This document shows positions 9,483 to 29,087 of a DNA stretch of 35,814 bases, one piece after another (the first letter of the stretch is position 1; every line of letters starts with the position of its first letter). The notes below the pieces were generated by a model. It did no database searches. It had not been told where the DNA came from and saw only the letters and a list, made by a program, of their open reading frames with translations. The stretch is from Octopus sinensis (lineage: Eukaryota). The position numbers and the translations under genes were made by a program. Where the stretch lies: NCBI RefSeq assembly GCF_006345805.1, contig NW_021829918.1:1-35814 (forward strand). Reading direction: 5' to 3'.

Positions 9483-9578
9483 GTGAAAGAGAAAGAAGGC
9501 GACTACAACGTGGCCATCAACCTCTACCTCAAATCTGGATTGCCCACCAAGGCTGCCCGGGTTGTGACCAACCATGAG
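9483..9578 (+). CDS. IFT172: IFT172 exon 5: VKEKEGDYNVAINLYLKSGLPTKAARVVTNHE
   Basis: cttcAG / GTaagt; 96 nt. Matches AISLYLKAGLPAKAARLV. Confidence 0.96.
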
Positions 9579-9701
9579 GTAAGTTATCACACTTTGCTAA
9601 TAGCAGCAGCAGCAGCAACAGTAGTAGAAGTAGTAGTAGTCGTAAGGTTCATTGAATTGTAGTCTATATATACATACAGTGTGTGTGTGTGTGTGTGTGT
9701 G

Positions 9702-9792
9702 TGGAGGTGCAATGGCCCAGTGGTTAGGGTAGCGGACTCATGGTCATAGGATTGCTGTTTCGATTCCCAGACTGGGCATTGTGAGTGTTTAT
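9702..9792 (+). mobile_element. SINE family D tRNA head, truncated at the U6 fragment
   Basis: GGAGGTGCAATGGCCCAGTGGTTAGGG...GTTTCGATTCCC, matching the reverse complement of 16990-17083. Confidence 0.75.
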
Positions 9793-9826
9793 GGAATGCT
9801 TCACGAATTTGCGTTTCATCCTTGCG
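9790..9826 (-). pseudogene. RNU6: U6 snRNA 3' fragment (approx. nt 66-102)
   Basis: Reverse complement CGCAAGGATGAAACGCAAATTCGTGAAGCATTCCATA vs canonical U6 CGCAAGGATGACACGCAAATTCGTGAAGCGTTCCATA, 35/37 identical. Confidence 0.9.
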
Positions 9827-10037
9827 TAATCCGACCCCATCTACCGCCCCTTAAACCGTTCCCATCCCTAAATGAGACAAATAACTGAAAAATCAAACAA
9901 CTTTTTCGCTTTTCAGCCTTATAGATATTGATATATATTTATAGAGTGGTTGTATACTGTCAACATAATGTGACAGTCCCGTAAGGGAATTACACCACCG
10001 CTGTTTAGCCCTAGGAAGCATCGACGAGGGAGGGCAG

Positions 10038-11016
10038 TGAGCTGGCAGAAACATTAGCACGTTGGGCGAAATGCTTAGCGGTATTTCGTCTGCCGTTACG
10101 TTGTGAGTTCAAATTCCGCTGAGGTCGACTTTGCCTTTCATCCTTGCGGGGTCGATAAATAAAAAGTACCAGTTACGCCTGGGGGGGGTCGATGTTTTGT
10201 AGTCGATTTAATCCGTTTGTCTGTCCTTGTTTTTCCCCTCTATGTTAGCCCCTTGTGGGTAGTAAAGAAATAGGTATTTCGTCTGCGTTATGTTGTGAGT
10301 TCAAATTCCACCGAGGTCGACTTTGCCTTTCATCCTTGCGGGGTCGATAAATAAAAAGTACCAGTTACACACTGGGGTCGATGTAGTCGATTTAATCCGT
10401 TTGTCTGTCCTTGTTTTTCCCCTCTATGTTTAGCCCCTTGTGGGTAGTAAAGAAATAGGTATTTCGTCTGCCGTTATGTTGTGAGTTCAAATTCCACCGA
10501 GGTCGACTTTGCCTTTCATCCTTGCGGGGTCGATAAATAAAAAGTACCAGTTACGCACTGGGGTCGATGTAGTCGATTTAATCCGTTTGTCTGTCCTTGT
10601 TTTTCCCCTCTATGTTTAGCCCCTTGTGGGTAGTAAAGAAATAGGTATTTCGTCTGCCGTTATGTTGTGAGTTCAAATTCCACCACCGAGGTCGACTTTG
10701 CCTTTCATCCTTGCGGGGTCGATAATAAAAGTACCAGTTACGCACTGGGGTCGATGTAGTCGATTTAATCCGTTTGTCTGTCCTTGTTTTTCCCCTCTAT
10801 GTTTAGCCCCTTGTGGGTAGTAAAGAAATAGGTATTTCGTCTGCCGTATGTTGTGAGTTCAAATTCACCGAGGTCGACTTTGCCTTTCATCCTTGCGGGG
10901 TCGATAAATAAAAAGTACCAGTTACGCACTGGGGTCGATGTAGCGATTTATTTAATCCGTTTGTCTGTCCTTGTTTTTCCCCTCTATGTTTAGCCCCTTG
11001 TGGGTAATAAAGAAAT
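10038..11016 (+). mobile_element. SINE family B, head-to-tail pentamer (~186-bp units)
   Basis: One head (GAGCTGGCAGAAAC), then units starting at 10081, 10274, 10459, 10645 and 10832. B box GAGTTCAAATT. Core GCCTTTCATCCTT..GGGGTCGATAAAT resembles the Meta/MESC SINE domain (from memory). Confidence 0.85.
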
Positions 11017-11059
11017 ATATATTTGTGAAGGGGAGGCAAGCACCCCCACCACCTAGGGT

Positions 11060-11118
11060 TCACACCTGAAGACATGCATGTTTCTGGGTCTTTCCCGTCA
11101 TCAGTCCAGGGTAGTGAG
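11060..11118 (-). ncRNA. Minimal type I hammerhead ribozyme motif (Penelope/retrozyme-like)
   Basis: Minus strand reads CCUGGA-CUGAUGA-C-GGG-AAAGA-CCC-A-GAAA-CAUGCAUG-UC^UUCAGG. It has the complete CUGAUGA/GAAA/GUC core, a 6-bp helix I, a 3-bp helix II and a palindromic helix III. Confidence 0.78.
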
Positions 11119-11354
11119 TCCTGCTAGTTGAGATACCTGCCAAGCCTTCGCAAAGATATATATTTACAGTGAAATCTATTCACTGGTCACCGTAATTCGA
11201 AATATTAAATTTCTAAATGTCTCAAAGAGCCATGAGCGGTGGTGGAGCGGTAGAGTGGTTGTATACTGTCAACTTAACGTGACAGTCGCGTATATATACA
11301 TACACACCCTTCATACACATTTACATGTATTTTTCCGTTTTTCCTCTTTTCCAG

Positions 11355-11426
11355 AACCTTCTCTCCAACACTGAACTGACGTCTCGAATCGCCTCCGCCC
11401 TTGTCAAAGCAGAGCTTTACGAACAA
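11355..11426 (+). CDS. IFT172: IFT172 exon 6: NLLSNTELTSRIASALVKAELYEQ
   Basis: Polypyrimidine tract + ccAG / GTaagt; 72 nt. Matches [24 protein letters not shown]. Confidence 0.95.
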
Positions 11427-11624
11427 GTAAGTTTAGGTTTGAGAGTTTGTGTTGCGGTCGTGGTGGTAGCTGCAGTACGCTTGTTTGCTGTGGCTGTGAC
11501 GCGACGTGGTGCTGTGGTGTCACGGGATGTGACTGTATGTTTGTGTCATAGTACGAGTGGTGCTCAGTTTCCATAGTGTGTAGTGTGGTAGTTGTTGTTC
11601 TGTAATGTGGTGGTGGTGTGGTGG

Positions 11625-14082
11625 TGGTTGGTGTACTGGTATTGTGGTGGTGGTAGTTTTACAGTGGTATGTTTTGTAGTTGTGCTAGTGGTGGTGGTTG
11701 ATGTACTGGTATTGTGGTGGTGGTAGTTTTACAGTGGTATGTTTTGTAGTTGTGCTAGTGGTGGTGGTAGTTTTACAGTGGTATGTTTGTAGTTGTGCTA
11801 GTGGTGGTGGTTGGTGTACTGGTTTGTGGGTTGGTGGTGTTGGTGTTTTTTACAGTGGTATGTTTTGTAGTTGTGCTAGTGGTGTGGGTTGAAGCACTGG
11901 TATTGTGGTGGTGGTAGTTTTACAGTGGTATGTTTTGTAGTTGTGCTAGTGGTGGTGGTTGGTGTACTGGTATTGTGTGTGTGGTGGTTTTTACAGTGGT
12001 ATGGTTTTGTAGTTGTGCTAGTTGTGCTAGTGTGTGGTTGAAGCACTGGTATTGTGGTGGTGGTAGTTTTACAGTGGTATGTTTTGTAGTTGTGCTAGTG
12101 GTGGTGGTTGAAGCACACTGGTATTGTGGTGGTGGTAGTTTTACAGTGGTATGTTTTGTAGTTGTGCTAGTGGTGGTGGTTGAAGCACTGGACTGGTATG
12201 GTGGTGGTGGTAGTTTTACAGTGGTATGTTTTGTATTGTGCTAGTGGTGGTGGTTGATTGTACTGGTATTGTGGTGGTGGTAGTTTTACAGTGGTATGTT
12301 TTGTAGTTGTGCTAGTGGTGGTGGTTGAAGCACTGGTATTGTGGTGGTGGTAGTTTTACAGTGGTATGTTTTGTAGTTGTGCTAGTGGTGGTGGTTGATG
12401 TACTGGTATTGTGGTGGTGGTAGTTTTACAGTGGTATGTTTTGTAGTTGTGCTAGTGGTGGTGGTTGTGTACTGGTATTGTGGTGTGTAGGTTTACAAGT
12501 GGTATGTTTTGTAGTTGTGCTAGTGGTGGTGGTTGGTGTACTGGTATTGTGGTGGTAGTTTTACAGTGGTATGTTTTGTAGTTGTGCTAGTGGTGATGGT
12601 TGAAGCACTGGTATTGTGGTGGTGGTAGTTTTACAGTGGTATGTTTTGTAGTTGTGCTAGTGGTGATGGTTGAAGCACTGGTATTGTGGTGGTGGTAGTT
12701 TTACAGTGGTATGTTTTGTAGTTGTGCTAGTGGTGGTGGTTGATGTACTGGTATTGTGGTGGTGGTAGTTTTACAGTGGTATGTTTTGTAGTTGTGCTAG
12801 TGGTGATGGTTGAAGCACTGGTATTGTGGTGGTGGTAGTTTTACAGTGGTATGTTTTGTAGTTGTGCTAGTGGTGGTGGTTGAAGCACTGGTATTGTGGT
12901 GGTGGTAGTTTTACAGTGGTATGTTTTGTAGGTTTGTGCTAGTGGTGTGGTTGATGTAATGGTATTGGGTGGTGGTAGTTTTACAGTGGTATGTTTTGTA
13001 GTTGTGCTAGTGGTGGTGGTTGATGTACTGGTATTATGGTGGTGGTAGTTTTACAGTGGTATGTTTTGTAGTTGTGCTAGTGGTGGTGGTTGATGTACTG
13101 GTATTGTGGTGGTGGTAGTTTTACAGTGGTATGTTTTGTAGTTGTGCTAGTGGTGGTGGTTGATGTACTGGTATTGTGGTGGTGGTAGTTTTACAGTGGT
13201 ATGTTTTGTAGTTGTGCTAGTGGTGGTGGTTGATGTACTGGTATTGTGGTGGTGGTAGTTTTACAGTGGTATGTTTTGTAGTTGTGCTAGTGGTGGTGGT
13301 TGATGTACTGGTATTGTGGTGGTGGTAGTTTTACAGTGGTATGTTTTGTAGTTGTGCTAGTGGTGGTGGTTGATGTACTGGTATTGTGGTGGTGGTAGTT
13401 TTACAGTGGTATGTTTTGTAGTTGTGCTAGTGGTGATGGTTGAAGCACTGGTATTGTGGTGGTGGTAGTTTTACAGTGTATGTTTGTAGTTGTGCTAGTG
13501 GTGGTGGTTGAAGCACTGGTATGTGGTGGTGGTAGTTTTACAGTGGTATGTTTTGTAGTTGTGCTAGTGGTGGTGGTGGATGTATGGTATTGTGGTGGTG
13601 GTAGTTTTACAGTGGTATGTTTTGTTAGTTGTGGCTAGTGGTGGTGGTTGATGTACTGGTATTATGGTGGTGGTAGTTTTACAGTGGTATGTTTTGTAGT
13701 TGTGCTAGTGGTGGTGGTGAAGCACTGGTATTGTGGTGGTGTAGTTTTACAGTGGTATGTTTTGTAGTTGTGCTAGTGGTGGTGGTTGAAGCACTGGTAT
13801 TGTGGTGGGTGGTAGTTTTACAGTGGTATGTGTTGTAGTGTGTGCTAGTGGTGGTGGTTGAAGCACTGGTATTGTGGTGGTGGTAGTTTTACAGTGGTAT
13901 GTTTTGTAGTTGTGCTAGTGGTGGTGGTTGAAGCACTGGTATTGTGGTGGTGGTAGTTTTACAGTGGTATGTTTTGTAGTTGTGCTAGTGGTGGTGGTTG
14001 GTGTACTGGTATTGTGGTGGTGGTAGTTTTACAGTGGTATGTTTTGTAGTATGCTAGTGGTGGTGGTAGTGTTACAGTGGTA
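11625..14082. repeat. 70-bp minisatellite, ~35 copies
   Basis: Unit CTGGTATTGTGGTGGTGGTAGTTTTACAGTGGTATGTTTTGTAGTTGTGCTAGTGGTGGTGGTTGATGTA; period 70 (e.g. 13021 to 13091). Confidence 0.95.
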
Positions 14083-17284: not shown

Positions 17285-17556
17285 CACTATCATCATCATT
17301 GTTCGACCGTGGTCGAGACAATGGAATTTACCATGCTACGCCAGACTTCACGGTCCATCATAGCATTACGGAGGTCCTGTTGCTGGATGCCTGTATCCCT
17401 GGGGATTACATCAGGGTAGGAGTGTGTGCACCCTCTGGTATTGCGAGCAGATGGCTTCCAGAGGAGAAGAGTAGAAATTACCTTGTTTCCAGTTCTACAA
17501 CAATGTCCAGCAAACTGGACTCTTCTGCTTTTCACAAGAGATGATATGTATGTATG

Positions 17557-17593
<37 letters not shown>

Positions 17594-18290
17594 ATCATCA
17601 TCATCATTGTTCGACCTTGGTCGAGACAATGGAATTTACCATGCTACACCAGACTTCACGGTCCATCATGGCATTACGGAGGTCCTGTTGCTGGATGCCT
17701 TGTCCCCTGGGGATTACATCAGGGTAGGGTGTGTGCACCCTCTGGTATTGCGAGCAGATGGCTTCCAGAGGAGAAGAGTAGAAATTACCTCGTTTCCAGT
17801 TCTACAACAATGTCCAGCAAACTGGACTCTTCTGCTTTTCACAAGAGATGATATGTATGTAGTAATAATATATATATATATATATTTAAATATATATATA
17901 TCATCATCATCATTGTTTGACCGTGGTCGAGACAATGGAATTTACCATGCTACACCAGACTTCACGGTCCATCATAGCATTACGGAGGTCCTGTTGCTGG
18001 ATGCCTGTATCCCTGGAGATTACATTAGGGTAGGAGGGTATGCACCCTCTGGTATCGCAAGCAGATGGCTTCCAGAGGAGAATAGTAGAAATTACCTCGT
18101 TTTCAGCTCGACAACAATGTCCAGCAAACTGGACTCTCCTACCTTTCTCAAGAGATGACACAGGTGGTAGTTTCCCATATATTTGCATTTTGGTTGGACG
18201 GCGCTTCCACGAGAGATTTTGAGCTCTCATAAGGAGGTGAGTGTAGGTTCCATCGAACCGCCTCTCAAGCTTCTTTGATAACGTCCAGGT
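17285..18290 (-). mobile_element. RTE-type LINE 3' end, three tandem copies separated by (TA)n
   Basis: ORF 17910-18230 reads RAQNLSWKRRPTKMQIYGKLPPVSS..RRVQFAGHCCR..LLWKP..AMMDREVW, typical of the RTE/RTE-X ORF2 C-terminus; (TGA)n tails. Confidence 0.8.
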
Positions 18291-19823: not shown

Positions 19824-19879
19824 GTAAAGAAAGACAACAAAAGCAGTGGTGGTGGTCACGTTGTTGTTGTCGTTGCTGT

Positions 19880-20725
19880 TGTCGTTTAACCCGAGGTCTG
19901 TTCTGATCGAACTAGCCTACGATCAAAGAGGTTCCAGCTGTGACCATCCCGTCTTTTATTGACATAGTGTATCTAGGACTACATTAACTAATGTGTCCTT
20001 CCTTGGTGATGTTTAGCCACAGGTCTGTCCTGATCCAGTAGACCTATGATCAAAGATCTTCCAGCTGTGACCATCCTGTCTTTTATTATTCAGGCATAGT
20101 GTATCTAGGAGTACATTATCTAATGTGTCCTTCCTTGTTGTTGTTTAGCCACAGGTCAGTCCTGATCCAGCAGACCTATGATCAAAGATGTTCCAGCTGT
20201 GACCATCCTGTCTTTTATTATTCATGCATCGTGTATCTAGGAGTACATTATCTAATATGTCCTTCCTTGTTGTTGTTTAGCCACAGGTCAGTCCTGATCC
20301 AGCAGACCTATGATCAAAGATCTTCCAGCTGTGACCATCCTGTCTTTTATTATTCAGGCATAGTGTATCTAGGAGTACATTATCTAATGTGTCCTTCCTT
20401 GTTGTTGTTTAGCCACAGGTCAGTCCTGATCCAGCAGACCTATGATCAAAGATCTTCCAGCTGTGACCATCCTGTCTTTTATTATTCAGGCATAGTGTAT
20501 CTAGGAGTACATTATCTAATATGTCCTTCCTTGTTGTTGTTTAGCCACAGGTCAGTCCTGATCCAGTAGACCTATGATCAAAGATGTTCCAGCTGTGATC
20601 TTCCAGCCTTTTATTCAGACATAGTGTATCTAGGAGTACATTATCTAATGTGTCATTTCTTGTTGATGTTTAGCCCCAGGTCAGACCTGATCCAGCAGAC
20701 CTATGATCAAAGACATTCTAGCTGG
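19880..20725 (+). repeat. 132-bp tandem repeat, ~6 copies
   Basis: GTATCTAGGAG at 20101, 20233 and 20365 (period 132). Confidence 0.92.
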
Positions 20726-20729
20726 GAGC

Positions 20730-21422
20730 ATGCACACGTATACACATATGCACATATATACATACATACATACATACACATACATACATTGACATACATA
20801 TATACATACACATACACACATACACATACGTAAACATACATACACACTCATACATACACATGCATATATACACACATGCATACATATACATATATATACA
20901 TTCATACATCCTTATATGCACACATGCATATACATACATACACATACTCACATACATACACAGGCAGGTACATACACATATACATACACACACGTAAACA
21001 TACATACACACATACATGCGTGCATATATATATATACATACATGCATCCATGCACACATACATACATATACATGCATGCATATATACACATGCATCCGTG
21101 CATACATATATACACACATATGCATCCATGCGTACTTACACATACATACTTACACACACGCATACATACATACACACATACATACATACATACATACACA
21201 TGCATCCATTCATACTTACATGTACATACACACACACATACTTACATATACATGCATACACACATATTTACACATGTATACATACACACATACATACATA
21301 TACATACATACATACACACATCTATATATACATACATACACACATACATGCATATACATACATACACACACATACATACATTTATATACATACACGTATA
21401 CACATGAATGCATTCTTACATA
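20730..21422. repeat. (CA/TA/CATA)n microsatellite
   Basis: Directly visible. Confidence 0.95.
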
Positions 21423-22419: not shown

Positions 22420-23010
22420 AAGCTGGCAGAAACATTAGCACGCCAGGCGAAATGCGTAGCCATATTTCGTCTGCCGTTACGTTCTGGTTTCAAATTCCAC
22501 CGAGGTCGACTTTACCTTTCATCCTTTCGGGGTCGATAAATTAAGTACTAGTTACGCACCGGGGTCGATATAATCAACTTAATCCGTTTGTCCGTCCTTG
22601 TTTTTCCCCTCTGTGTTTAGCCCCTTGTGGGTAGTAAAGAAATAGGTATTTCGTCTGTCGTTACGTTCTGAGTTCAAATTCCGCTGAGGTCGACTTTGCC
22701 TTTCATCCTTTTGGGGTCGCGAAATTAAGTACCAGTTACGCACTGGGGTCGATATAATCGACTTAATCCGTTTGTCTGTCCTTGTTTGTCCCCTCTGTGT
22801 TTAGCCCCTTGTAGGTAGTAAAGAAATAGGTATTTCGTGTGCCGTTACGTTCTGAGTTCAAATTCCGCCGAGGTCAACTTTGCCTTTCATCCTTTCGGGG
22901 GTCGATAAATTAAGTACCAGTTACGCACTGGGGTCGATATAATCGACTTAATCCCTTTGTCTGTCCTTGTTTGTCCCCTCTGTGTTTAGCCCCTTGTAGG
23001 TAGTAAAGAA
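22420..23010 (+). mobile_element. SINE family B, head-to-tail trimer (~184-bp units)
   Basis: One head, then units at ~22462, 22646 and 22830. Confidence 0.85.
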
Positions 23011-23176
23011 ATATATATCTATATATACATACACACATACATATGCATGCACACATACACGCATAAACACGCATATACATGCATACATACACGCATACAT
23101 GCACCCACCAACACCCACACACACATTCATAGAGGAAGTACTAGTCTTCACTAATTATTACGTATGTTATCAAGTG

Positions 23177-25483: not shown

Positions 25484-25522
25484 GTTTGCTGCGGACCCCA
25501 CTTTCTATGCTGCTTTTTTTGT

Positions 25523-26453
25523 CATTTAATTACTTGTTGTTTGCTTGTTTATTTGTTTTATGTTTTACTCCTGTGATTCTATGCTGGCATGAATCGGAGG
25601 AAGACTTTTTTTTTAGGTTATGGCTGTGTTTGACAGCCTGATGCCCTTTCTTTTGCAAGGAAACTTTTAACAAGGGATTTCTATTTTTTACTCTTCTACT
25701 GGGGGTTTGTGAACCTCACAAATTGCTGGCCCCTTCATGAAATCATTGATAACTAATCATTTACCCCACCCGCCATCATGAAATTTTCTAAAATATATTA
25801 GTAAAATATAATTAGTAAAAGAAATTTCTTAGTTGATTCATTTAATACTTGTTGTTTGCTTTTATTTGTTTTATGTTTTACTTCTGTGATTCTATGCTGG
25901 CATGATCGGAGGAAGACTTTTTTTTTGGTTATGGCTGTTGTTTGACAGCCTGATGCCCTTTCTTTTGCAAGGAAACTTTTAACAAGGGATTTCTATTTTT
26001 TACTCTTCTACTGGGGGTTTGTGAACCTCACAAATCGCTGGCCCCTTCATGAAATCATTGATAACTAATCATTTACCCCACCCGCCATCATGAAATTTTC
26101 TAAAATATAATTAGTAAAATATAATTAGTAAAAGAAATTTCTTAGTTGATTTCATTTAATTACTTGTTGTTTGCTTGTTTATTTGTTTTATGTTTTACTT
26201 CTGTGATTCTATGCTGGCATGGATCGGTGGAAGACTTTTTTTTTAGGTTATGGCTGTGTTTGACAACCTGATGCCCTTTCTTTTGCAAAGAAACTTTTAA
26301 CAAGGGATTGCTATTTTTTACTCTTCTACCAGGGGTTTGCGAACCTCACAAATCGATGGCTCCTTCATGAAATCATTGATAACTAATCATTTACCCCACC
26401 TGCCATCATGTAATTTTCTAAAATATAATTAGTAAAAGAAATTTCTTAGTTGA
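25523..26453. repeat. ~315-bp tandem triplication
   Basis: Near-identical units start at ~25523, 25839 and 26152. Confidence 0.92.
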
Positions 26454-27501: not shown

Positions 27502-29087
27502 TATCAAAATAGATGAACATCAATGGAATTTGTATCTTTGTGGTTCCAGTACCGGTGGCACACAAGAAAACCATCCGAACGTGGCCGTAGCCAGTACCGC
27601 ATCGACTGGCCTCCGTGCTGTGGGCACAACAAACACCATCTGATCGTGGCCGTTCGCCAGCCTCATCTGGCACCTGTGTCGGTGGCACATAAAAAACCAT
27701 CCGAAGACCCGGCGACGTAGTCAGTCCACCTGTGCATACCTTCCTACTTATGACACTTGTGAAGACCTGTTGAGGCAAGTGTGTGACACTTGTGTAGACC
27801 TGTTGAGGCAAGTGAAAATCAAATCAAATCAAATCAAACCAAATCAAAATAGATGAACATCAATGGAATTTGTATCTTTGTGGTACCAGTACCGGTGGCA
27901 CACAAGAAAACCATCCGAACGTGGCCGTATAGCCAGTACCGCATCGACTGGCCTCTGTGATGTGGGCACATAACAAACACCATCCGATCGTGGCCGTCCG
28001 CCAGCCTCATCTGGCACCTGTGTCGGTGGCACATAAAAACACCAACCGAAGACCCGGCAAGACTAGTCAGGCCATAACCCGTGGCCCCTACTTGGGACGT
28101 AGTCAGTCCACCTGTGCATACCTTCCTTCCTTCTTGTGACACTTGTGAAGACCTGTGAAGACCTGTTGAGGCAAGTGAAAATCAAATCAAATCAAATCAA
28201 ATCAAAATAGATGAACATCAATGGAATTTGTATCTTTGTGGTACCAGTGCCGGTGGCACACAAGAGAACCATCCGAACGTGGCCGTAGCCAGTACCGCAT
28301 CGACTGGCCTCCGTGCTGTGGGCACGTAACAAACACCATCCGTTCGTGGCCGTTCGCCAGCCTCATCTGGCACCTGTGTCGGTGGCACATAAAAACACCA
28401 TCCGAAGACCCGGCAAGACTAGTCAGGCCATAACCCGTGGCCCCTACCTGGGACGTAGTCAGTCCACCTGTGCATACCTTCCTTCTTGTGACACTTGTGA
28501 AGACCTGTTGAGGCAAGTGAAAATCAAATCAAAACAAATCAAAATAGATGAACATCAATGGAATTTGTATCTTTGTGGTACCAGTGCCGGTGGCACACAA
28601 GAAAATCATCCGAACGTGGCCGTAGCCAGTACCGCATAGACTGGCCTCCGTGCTTTGGGGACGTAACAAACACCATCCGATCGTGGCCGTCCGCCAGCCT
28701 CATCTGGCACCTGTGTCGGTGGCACATAAAAACACCATCCGAGCGTGGCCGTCTGCCAGCCTCGTCTGGCACCTGTGTCGGTGGCACATAAAAACACCAT
28801 CCGAGCGTGGCCGTCTGCCAGCCTCATCTGGCACCTGTGTCGGTGGCACATAAAAACACCATCCGAGCGTGGCCGTTCACCAGCCTCGTCTGGCACCTGT
28901 GTCGGTGGCACATAAAATCACCCACTACACTCTCGGAGTGGTTGGCGTTAGGAAGGGCATCCAGCTGTAGAAACACTGCCAGATCTGACTGGCCTGGTGC
29001 AGCCTTCGGGCTCCCCAGACCCCAGTTGAACCGTCCAACCCATGCTAGCATGGAAAACGGACGCTAAATGATGATGATGATGATGAT
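27502..29087 (+). mobile_element. Family C element with a 5' array of ~350-bp units and ~62-bp subrepeats, (GAT)n tail
   Basis: Units start at ~27502, 27843, 28201 and 28538, separated by (AAATC)n. Four 62-bp repeats at 28670-28915, then the family C tail. Confidence 0.75.

Follow-up and report, generated by a model that had tools for sequence, protein, structure and literature searches.

Hammerhead Motif and Its Host Intron

The window analyzed here is the whole 35,814-nt stretch of the Octopus sinensis contig NW_021829918.1, and it contains a predicted type I hammerhead ribozyme lying antisense in an intron of IFT172 (Table 1). The intron spans 9579-11354 between two spliced exons. Its placement in IFT172 by the first-pass annotation was borne out by the flanking spliced exons, several of which matched IFT172 in order: the exon upstream did so (three consensus-TPR proteins outscored IFT172 there), the 24-aa exon downstream gave no match of its own in the database search, and two later exons matched residues 848-883 and 1045-1082. 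Other short-repeat tandem arrays were observed in the IFT172 introns at 11618-14067 (70 nt), 17289-18158 (307 nt), 19877-20731 (132 nt), 22463-23013 (184 nt), 25522-26437 (318 nt), and 27503-28742 (337 nt).

Table 1. Features at the hammerhead locus (positions in the window).
Feature	Position	Strand	Basis or remark
IFT172 exon upstream of the intron	9483-9578	+	Matches IFT172 residues 763-791, E 3.6e-7
Unit, 3' part	9941-10027	-	Tail-less fixed end CAACCACTC, then TATA
Five tandem 186-nt units inside the copy	10030-11017	+	Insert that splits the copy
Unit, 5' and middle part	11018-11292	-	Begins after TATATA; 92-95% identity to the nearest copies compared
Long imperfect hairpin of the unit	11018-11158	-	Fold of 11040-11140 and a related natural monomer; inverted repeat
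Type I hammerhead	11060-11118	-	Read from the letters; cut predicted between 11071 and 11070
Empty LINE target zone	11123-11140	-	In other copies, 3' junctions lie 19-22 or 29-36 nt upstream of core C3
Next exon	11355-11426	+	In frame with the previous exon; IFT172 by position

Re-reading the minus strand gave the same letters as the first-pass annotation, with all core nucleotides present. Helix I is formed by CCUGGA (11110-11105) and UUCAGG (11070-11065), with a distal bulge. CUGAUGA follows at 11104-11098 (C3 = 11104), and a 3-bp helix II (GGG-AAAGA-CCC) is closed at its base by a mismatch between C10.1 (11097) and A11.1 (11085), the usual (common, not obligatory) G10.1-C11.1 pair being absent. 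After A11.1 come GAAA, helix III (ACAUGCAUGU, 11081-11072), which has 3 bp and a palindromic tetraloop, and C17 (11071). The core order of a type I hammerhead (CUGANGA, GAAA, UH) is found in this motif and conserved across the family described below. The motif had been called minimal, a term that does not fit: the min-HHRs of Penelope-like elements (PLEs), as described in the available text of PMC4209133, are without helix III, whereas the hammerhead of the present unit has one.

Taken by itself, the window motif does not exceed what chance would give. Three overlapping matches to a loose hammerhead pattern were found, all at one site, vs. 1.36 expected, and 22 of 100 shuffles scored as high. 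The Rfam hammerhead families, a search that the first-pass annotation had proposed, gave no match at E ≤ 1 in the window or at E ≤ 10 in 201 nt. In addition, the 71-nt fold around the motif had a z-score of -0.79 and a predicted shape other than a hammerhead, the hammerhead fold being computed to lie 3.9 kcal/mol above the minimum-energy fold. We take the motif as real because of the family evidence (copies, covariation, and palindromes), not because of single-site statistics.

The copy that carries the motif runs from 11292 to about 9945 and comprises ∼1.1 units, its first ∼40 nt being repeated at the end; in the fold, the hammerhead forms the tip of a ∼140-nt imperfect hairpin. The inserted array of five 186-nt units, which we take to be SINE-like, replaced about 35 nt of the unit. 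Having a single ribozyme, a 1-kb insert, and an antisense orientation, the window copy is likely inert; it is ordinary debris. Being antisense and broken, it occupies the intron incidentally, and as it is also one among hundreds of dispersed copies, we rejected a role in the processing of IFT172; no effect of this dead antisense insertion on IFT172 RNA is expected.

A Repeat Family With a Covarying Hammerhead

A genome search returned 737 candidates, 40 of which were scored, and full matches were 89-96% identical. The exact core pattern matched the genome at least 243 times (reversed control, 0) and an exact 35-mer at the unit 3' end at least 359 times, both counts being lower bounds on copy number. 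The unit has a period of 353 nt and 45% GC, and its z-score when folded as a circle was -10.1 (40 shuffles).

For the covariation analysis, 60 of 124 distinct hammerhead stretches were picked for diversity and aligned. RNAalifold recovered helices I and II without guidance, with two-sided changes in 9 of 11 pairs; when the structure was named, two-sided changes were found in 10 of 15 pairs, including all six of helix I and two of the three Watson-Crick pairs of helix II. The covariation score, which is inflated because the aligned copies are related and were chosen by core pattern or LINE adjacency, was reached by none of 500 shuffles and was far lower in slid controls. Helix III was palindromic in 127 of 146 pattern rows (about six of the 146 being false positives), at lengths of 6, 8, and 10 nt, and a U3-A8 core covariation was also found in the family. 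The first-pass annotation had predicted a ribozyme-bearing mobile RNA family with a palindromic helix III and had suggested checking copy number and covariation; these copies and compensatory changes, together with the PLE and retrozyme character shown below, agree with that prediction.

Positions 10.1 and 11.1 were unpaired in 48 of the 60 aligned copies and formed G-C in none, and no G-C was present among the 100 core matches listed; it occurred only in the distant subfamilies of L252 and L300, whose core is UUGACAA. On these grounds, the C10.1-A11.1 mismatch is a lineage trait. Decay of the window copy was rejected as its cause, the mismatch being common to the family, and the earlier description of the motif as near-intact overlooks that it follows the family norm here. 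The natural series at this position (C-A, U-A, U-U, A-U, and G-C) could be used as a set for ribozyme biochemistry. Mismatches of this kind may already be described in the work of Lunse et al. on PLE hammerhead variants. Furthermore, the minus strand of L299 (3307-3998) contains two tandem units, 98% identical, of a distant subfamily with a 358-nt unit, the U3-A8 core, and U-U at 10.1-11.1; this dimer is a good candidate for cleavage assays.

Copy Architecture and a Probable Link to Penelope-Like Elements

Copies of the unit share a distinct architecture. At 109 loci with 175 arms, 143 arms stopped at one of two fixed points ∼55 nt apart, and 75 of these 143 ends preceded TA or TC runs. Head-to-head arms were found in 39 of the 109 loci, 26 of which had an extra tail on one arm only, and 23 of the 175 arms exceeded 400 nt. 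The 30 matches anchored on the 3' end, several of which are two arms of one locus, displayed the same architecture with widely varying 5' ends. PLE insertions are described as 5'-truncated and inverted, with one end bearing a tail (PMC8557442, in the text available), and the architecture observed here (5' truncation, inverted partners, one-end tail, and TA-rich sites) matches these marks of PLE mobilization.

In many copies, the unit end continues into its own start, and two cores lie in one locus at L059 and L075; full tandem dimers are rare in the subfamily of the window, most copies being shorter. Because copies run across both the cut site and the unit junction, we infer that reverse transcription likely began inside a circular or multimeric template. 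No pile-up of copy ends at the cut was seen, one of the 100 cores listed stopping there, plus L052 and L222. The stretches L070:3470-3533 and L052:3491-3535 end at the predicted cut, and L070 starts ∼30 nt upstream of the core, as do several other copies, which hints at a transcript start there.

We sampled three PLE families, 30 loci each, via PLE proteins from sampled loci, and none of these loci held a PLE with the unit as terminal repeat. The L005 unit had no match in the 30 loci of the Poseidon-like PLE, one of which carried a short tail match to a distant subfamily, nor in the 30 loci of the first Neptune-like family, which gave a few short matches to the flanks of other queries; both were discarded as a source of the unit, their 3' regions being unrelated to it. 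The third family has open frames of up to 1120 aa with a Cys linker and a GIY-YIG-type end, and its Atlas neighbors carry RVT_1, HTH_animal, and GIY-YIG; it was identified from these motifs and Atlas, a Pfam search with a 1042-aa frame giving no match. The unit was found within 1.5 kb in 4 of its 30 loci (3 of 29 without the query's own locus). In L298 and L300, units of distant subfamilies, other than that of the window, are fused directly to PLE pieces from within an ORF, an arrangement expected of template switching. Judged by these fusions, this Neptune/Nematis-type PLE appears to be the likeliest partner. A contig loose end resembling a PLE C-terminus was set aside, since it turned out to be single-copy flanking sequence.

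As to how animal retrozymes are copied, the present family shows PLE integration marks on more than 100 copies, and the long-frame PLE to which units are directly fused at two loci is a testable mobilization partner. Additionally, some of the sampled PLEs have hammerhead-like motifs of their own. In the Poseidon-like PLE (L180-L209), the 3' repeat contains a tRNA-like segment as well as a min-hammerhead of the element's own, whose helix III is palindromic; these lie 150-250 nt downstream of the endonuclease. A Neptune-like PLE (L151-L175), as read by eye, has a hammerhead-like motif ∼200 nt after the stop, with the U3-A8 core and a palindromic helix III but G at position 17.

LINE Insertions at the Ribozyme 5' Flank

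At 13 of 79 core-anchored loci, the 3' end of a LINE lay immediately upstream of the ribozyme. The commoner inserting element is ∼1.65 kb long and ORF1-only, with its own 3' end and target site duplications (TSDs). Its 3'-end pattern, which was first noticed beside units and so may have missed non-targeting subfamilies, occurred at 63 places genome-wide, each of which was examined: 48 matched the unit within 130 nt by BLAST, vs. a background of 18 of 3000 random places in PLE-anchored loci, three further ends were seen by eye to join a short target stub (L110, L133, and L135), and 12 were off-target. A loose core regular expression fired at 75 of the 3000 random places and was dropped for BLAST. 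The junctions of this element clustered 19-22 and 29-35 nt upstream of C3.

The second element bears a reverse transcriptase (RT). It is 5.4-5.6 kb long and has two ORFs with a zinc knuckle, APE, RT, and zf-RVT; its closest solved relative is L1 ORF2, and its domains, TSDs, and closest structure indicate an L1-group APE LINE. The same site, 35-36 nt upstream of C3, was used in seven of nine 3' ends, and all seven 5' ends listed followed unit sequence, four of them at loci already counted. Insertions with TSDs of 9-22 bp and unit sequence on either side were common, and off-target copies also had TSDs. The ORF1 products of the two elements, ORF1-only and RT-bearing, share ∼30% identity, and the nearest ORF1 clusters occur most often in Mollusca.

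LINEs have been treated as target-specific when more than 20% of copies are flanked by one repeat (PMC4494074, in the part available); the proportions found here, 48 of 63 and 7 of 9, lie above this value, and the ends behind them are not all independent, since some composites were re-copied together with the unit (L028, L063, L068, L108, L113, and L123) and element similarity correlated with target similarity (rho 0.42; 29 rows, a few with <480 nt of element). Target labels on the element tree required 15 changes, the minimum being 6, and none of 200 shuffles was as low. Elements at least 90% alike lay in targets at most 72% alike in 6 of 269 pairs. These results demonstrated that the 5' flank of the unit's ribozyme is a preferred insertion site, kept across diverged subfamilies.

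Several further observations concern these elements. The full-length ORF1-only copies of L111, L138, L127, L148, and L130 have short extra 5' pieces, which are target-like sequence of another subfamily; the piece of L130, as we take it, recalls the 5' end of U1 snRNA. In L113, L123, and L252, the ORF1-only element and the unit are repeated together in tandem, and the predicted ribozyme cuts would free a ∼2-kb ORF1-encoding RNA. Contigs of runs labeled as three other organisms (X18, X19, and X20) covered both the unit and the element 3' end, and among the contig pieces listed none spanned a LINE-unit junction with 31 nt on both sides. The unit and element families are likely, by sequence, to be common to relatives.

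Proposed Mechanism and Competing Explanations

We regard it as probable that the family is a ∼353-nt repeat of non-LTR retrozyme type with a predicted hammerhead, copied in trans by a PLE, and that its 5' flank is preferred by an L1-group LINE and an ORF1-only relative. The family, its covariation, the copy architecture, and the insertion preference were observed, and to these the model adds cleavage and circularization as presumed steps. Specifically, multimeric transcripts would be cut at GUC, aided by the pairing of two palindromic helix III strands, and the monomers would circularize after cutting. A PLE enzyme would prime at TA-rich DNA and start at a fixed point ∼180-230 nt downstream of the cut, from which it could continue past the unit junction; a fixed start and a run past the junction would lead to 5'-truncated copies, copies of 1 to 1.7 units, and head-to-head copies. 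The LINE endonuclease likely recognizes the unit loosely, and annealing of read-through RNA may assist.

Competing explanations were weighed on the same evidence. The unit might be a solo terminal repeat (pLTR) of an unfound autonomous PLE, with short 5'-truncated copies and no circular RNA. The PLE-type copy architecture would suit such an origin, as would the type I hammerheads that occur in PLE pLTRs (PMC4209133) and the similarity of frog retrozymes to pLTRs (bioRxiv 10.64898/2026.07.22.740005), both in the available text of these sources; however, the unit closes on itself in many copies, continuation into a PLE frame as a terminal repeat is seen at no locus, whether core-linked (109) or 3'-anchored (30), the two fusions involve mid-ORF pieces, and the 3' regions of the three PLE families differ from the unit, so that we consider a pLTR origin quite improbable. 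Another possibility is that the hammerhead is a relic, inactive since the loss of the 10.1-11.1 pair, and that the unit is simply a short repeat whose spread depends on PLEs. Compensatory change has kept the core, the triplet, the helix pairing, and the palindrome across subfamilies without the pair, and the axolotl HHR_Amex2, which resembles the octopus motif in having a mismatch at the helix II base (U-U there, C-A here), still cleaves, to 22% within one hour and more strongly when dimeric (PMC7229834, in the part available); both points make the relic explanation unlikely. It is favored by the lack of G-C among the 100 cores listed, the more stable misfold, the copy ends without a pile-up at the cut, and the Naiad PLEs, which are described as spreading without hammerheads (PMC8557442, in the text available). 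The fold and the alignment also speak against self-cutting, the hammerhead not being the minimum-energy fold and most aligned copies being unpaired at 10.1-11.1.

The LINE association, in turn, might reflect not targeting but descent from a single old LINE-in-unit composite, or from a few, multiplied by the PLE machinery. We hold this to be highly improbable: the site is used by two different elements with two junction classes, TSD lengths and 5' truncations vary among insertions that have unit sequence on either side, off-target copies carry TSDs of their own, second elements were inserted in front of the first at the same site (L081, L133, and L135), and the elements of L101 and L138 are 96.5% alike, their targets 70.7%. 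Re-copied composites do exist, seen as inverted or tandem forms, and the clustered target labels and the rho value given above would be expected from them, but the labels still need more than twice the minimum number of changes.

Helix I and the core stay whole downstream in most insertions, and therefore, under the preferred reading of a retrozyme-type repeat copied by a PLE and targeted by a LINE, read-through LINE RNA might be cut 50-70 nt beyond the element. It is conceivable, though doubtful, that the LINE borrows the ribozyme in this way: inserted upstream, its RNA would be cut so as to leave a tail complementary to the empty target, and the ribozyme would both finish and steer the RNA. 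The idea is made plausible by R2Ol: when its RNA finished, at the very 3' end, in read-through sequence of the target, efficiency rose from 12% to 96-98%, and additional sequence was a hindrance (PMC6530143, in the part available). The element 3' end, AATAAA, and the short A run in one junction class argue against it; the site may also be just a conserved multicopy target, or it may lie near a promoter. If the ribozyme is borrowed, the chain of parasites would have four tiers: PLE, retrozyme, LINE, and half-LINE. A LINE aimed at the ribozyme 5' arm allows a test of whether a retroelement can exploit a genomic hammerhead.

Comparison With Known Systems

Non-LTR retrozymes and their PLE link (PMC7229834, PMC4209133, bioRxiv 10.64898/2026.07.22.740005, PMC6765202) and LINEs aimed at other repeats (PMC4494074, PMC8869645) have already been published; the comparisons below refer to the available text of these sources. 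The octopus unit is like the metazoan non-LTR retrozymes of coral, mussel, and axolotl (Rtz_353) in being a non-coding unit of 150-450 nt with GC below 50% and in its type I hammerhead with a short palindromic helix III (PMC7229834). It differs from their long tandem arrays (PMC7229834) in having mostly dispersed copies of 0.3-1.7 units with fixed 3' ends and inverted partners, and its circular RNA is a prediction. Eight of nine predicted frog retrozymes did not cleave (bioRxiv 10.64898/2026.07.22.740005). With the hammerheads of PLE pLTRs and PLE-derived retrozymes (PMC4209133; bioRxiv 10.64898/2026.07.22.740005), the unit shares inverted 5'-truncated copies, a one-end tail, TA-rich sites, the U3-A8 core variant, and a proposed PLE dependence; unlike in PLE-derived retrozymes, its PLE link consists of architecture and two direct fusions, not pLTR homology.

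The octopus LINE is comparable with the Tx1-clade elements Tx1L in Tx1D, Tx1-Mar in Mariner-N4, and Keno in U2, which are also two-ORF APE-type LINEs that prefer a single position within a different multicopy element and share this target with a non-autonomous partner (PMC4494074). This likeness is one of target behavior; the hits of a homolog search bore no clade labels, and the octopus LINE is placed, by its domains, only as L1-group. It differs from the described Tx1-clade LINEs in that its target is a ribozyme 5' arm, kept across subfamilies to ∼66-72% identity. In the literature listings and papers covered by our search, neither a retrozyme from a cephalopod nor a LINE directed at a hammerhead was found. 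We regard the ribozyme family as a further case of the non-LTR retrozyme type, and the novelty lies in the LINE targeting.

HAL1 (half-L1) elements are ORF1-only. The ORF1-only element of the octopus is similar to HAL1, as generally known, in its content, its size of ∼1.65 kb, and its own 3' end and TSDs, and it differs in being target-specific and in an ORF1 so distant from that of its RT-bearing LINE. In R2, the HDV-like ribozyme sits at the RNA 5' end. Like R2, the octopus LINE is a site-specific element, one of whose RNA ends would be tied to a ribozyme (PMC6765202, PMC6530143); R2 has its own HDV-like ribozyme and another endonuclease, whereas for the octopus LINE the target would supply the ribozyme, which would cut at the 3' side.
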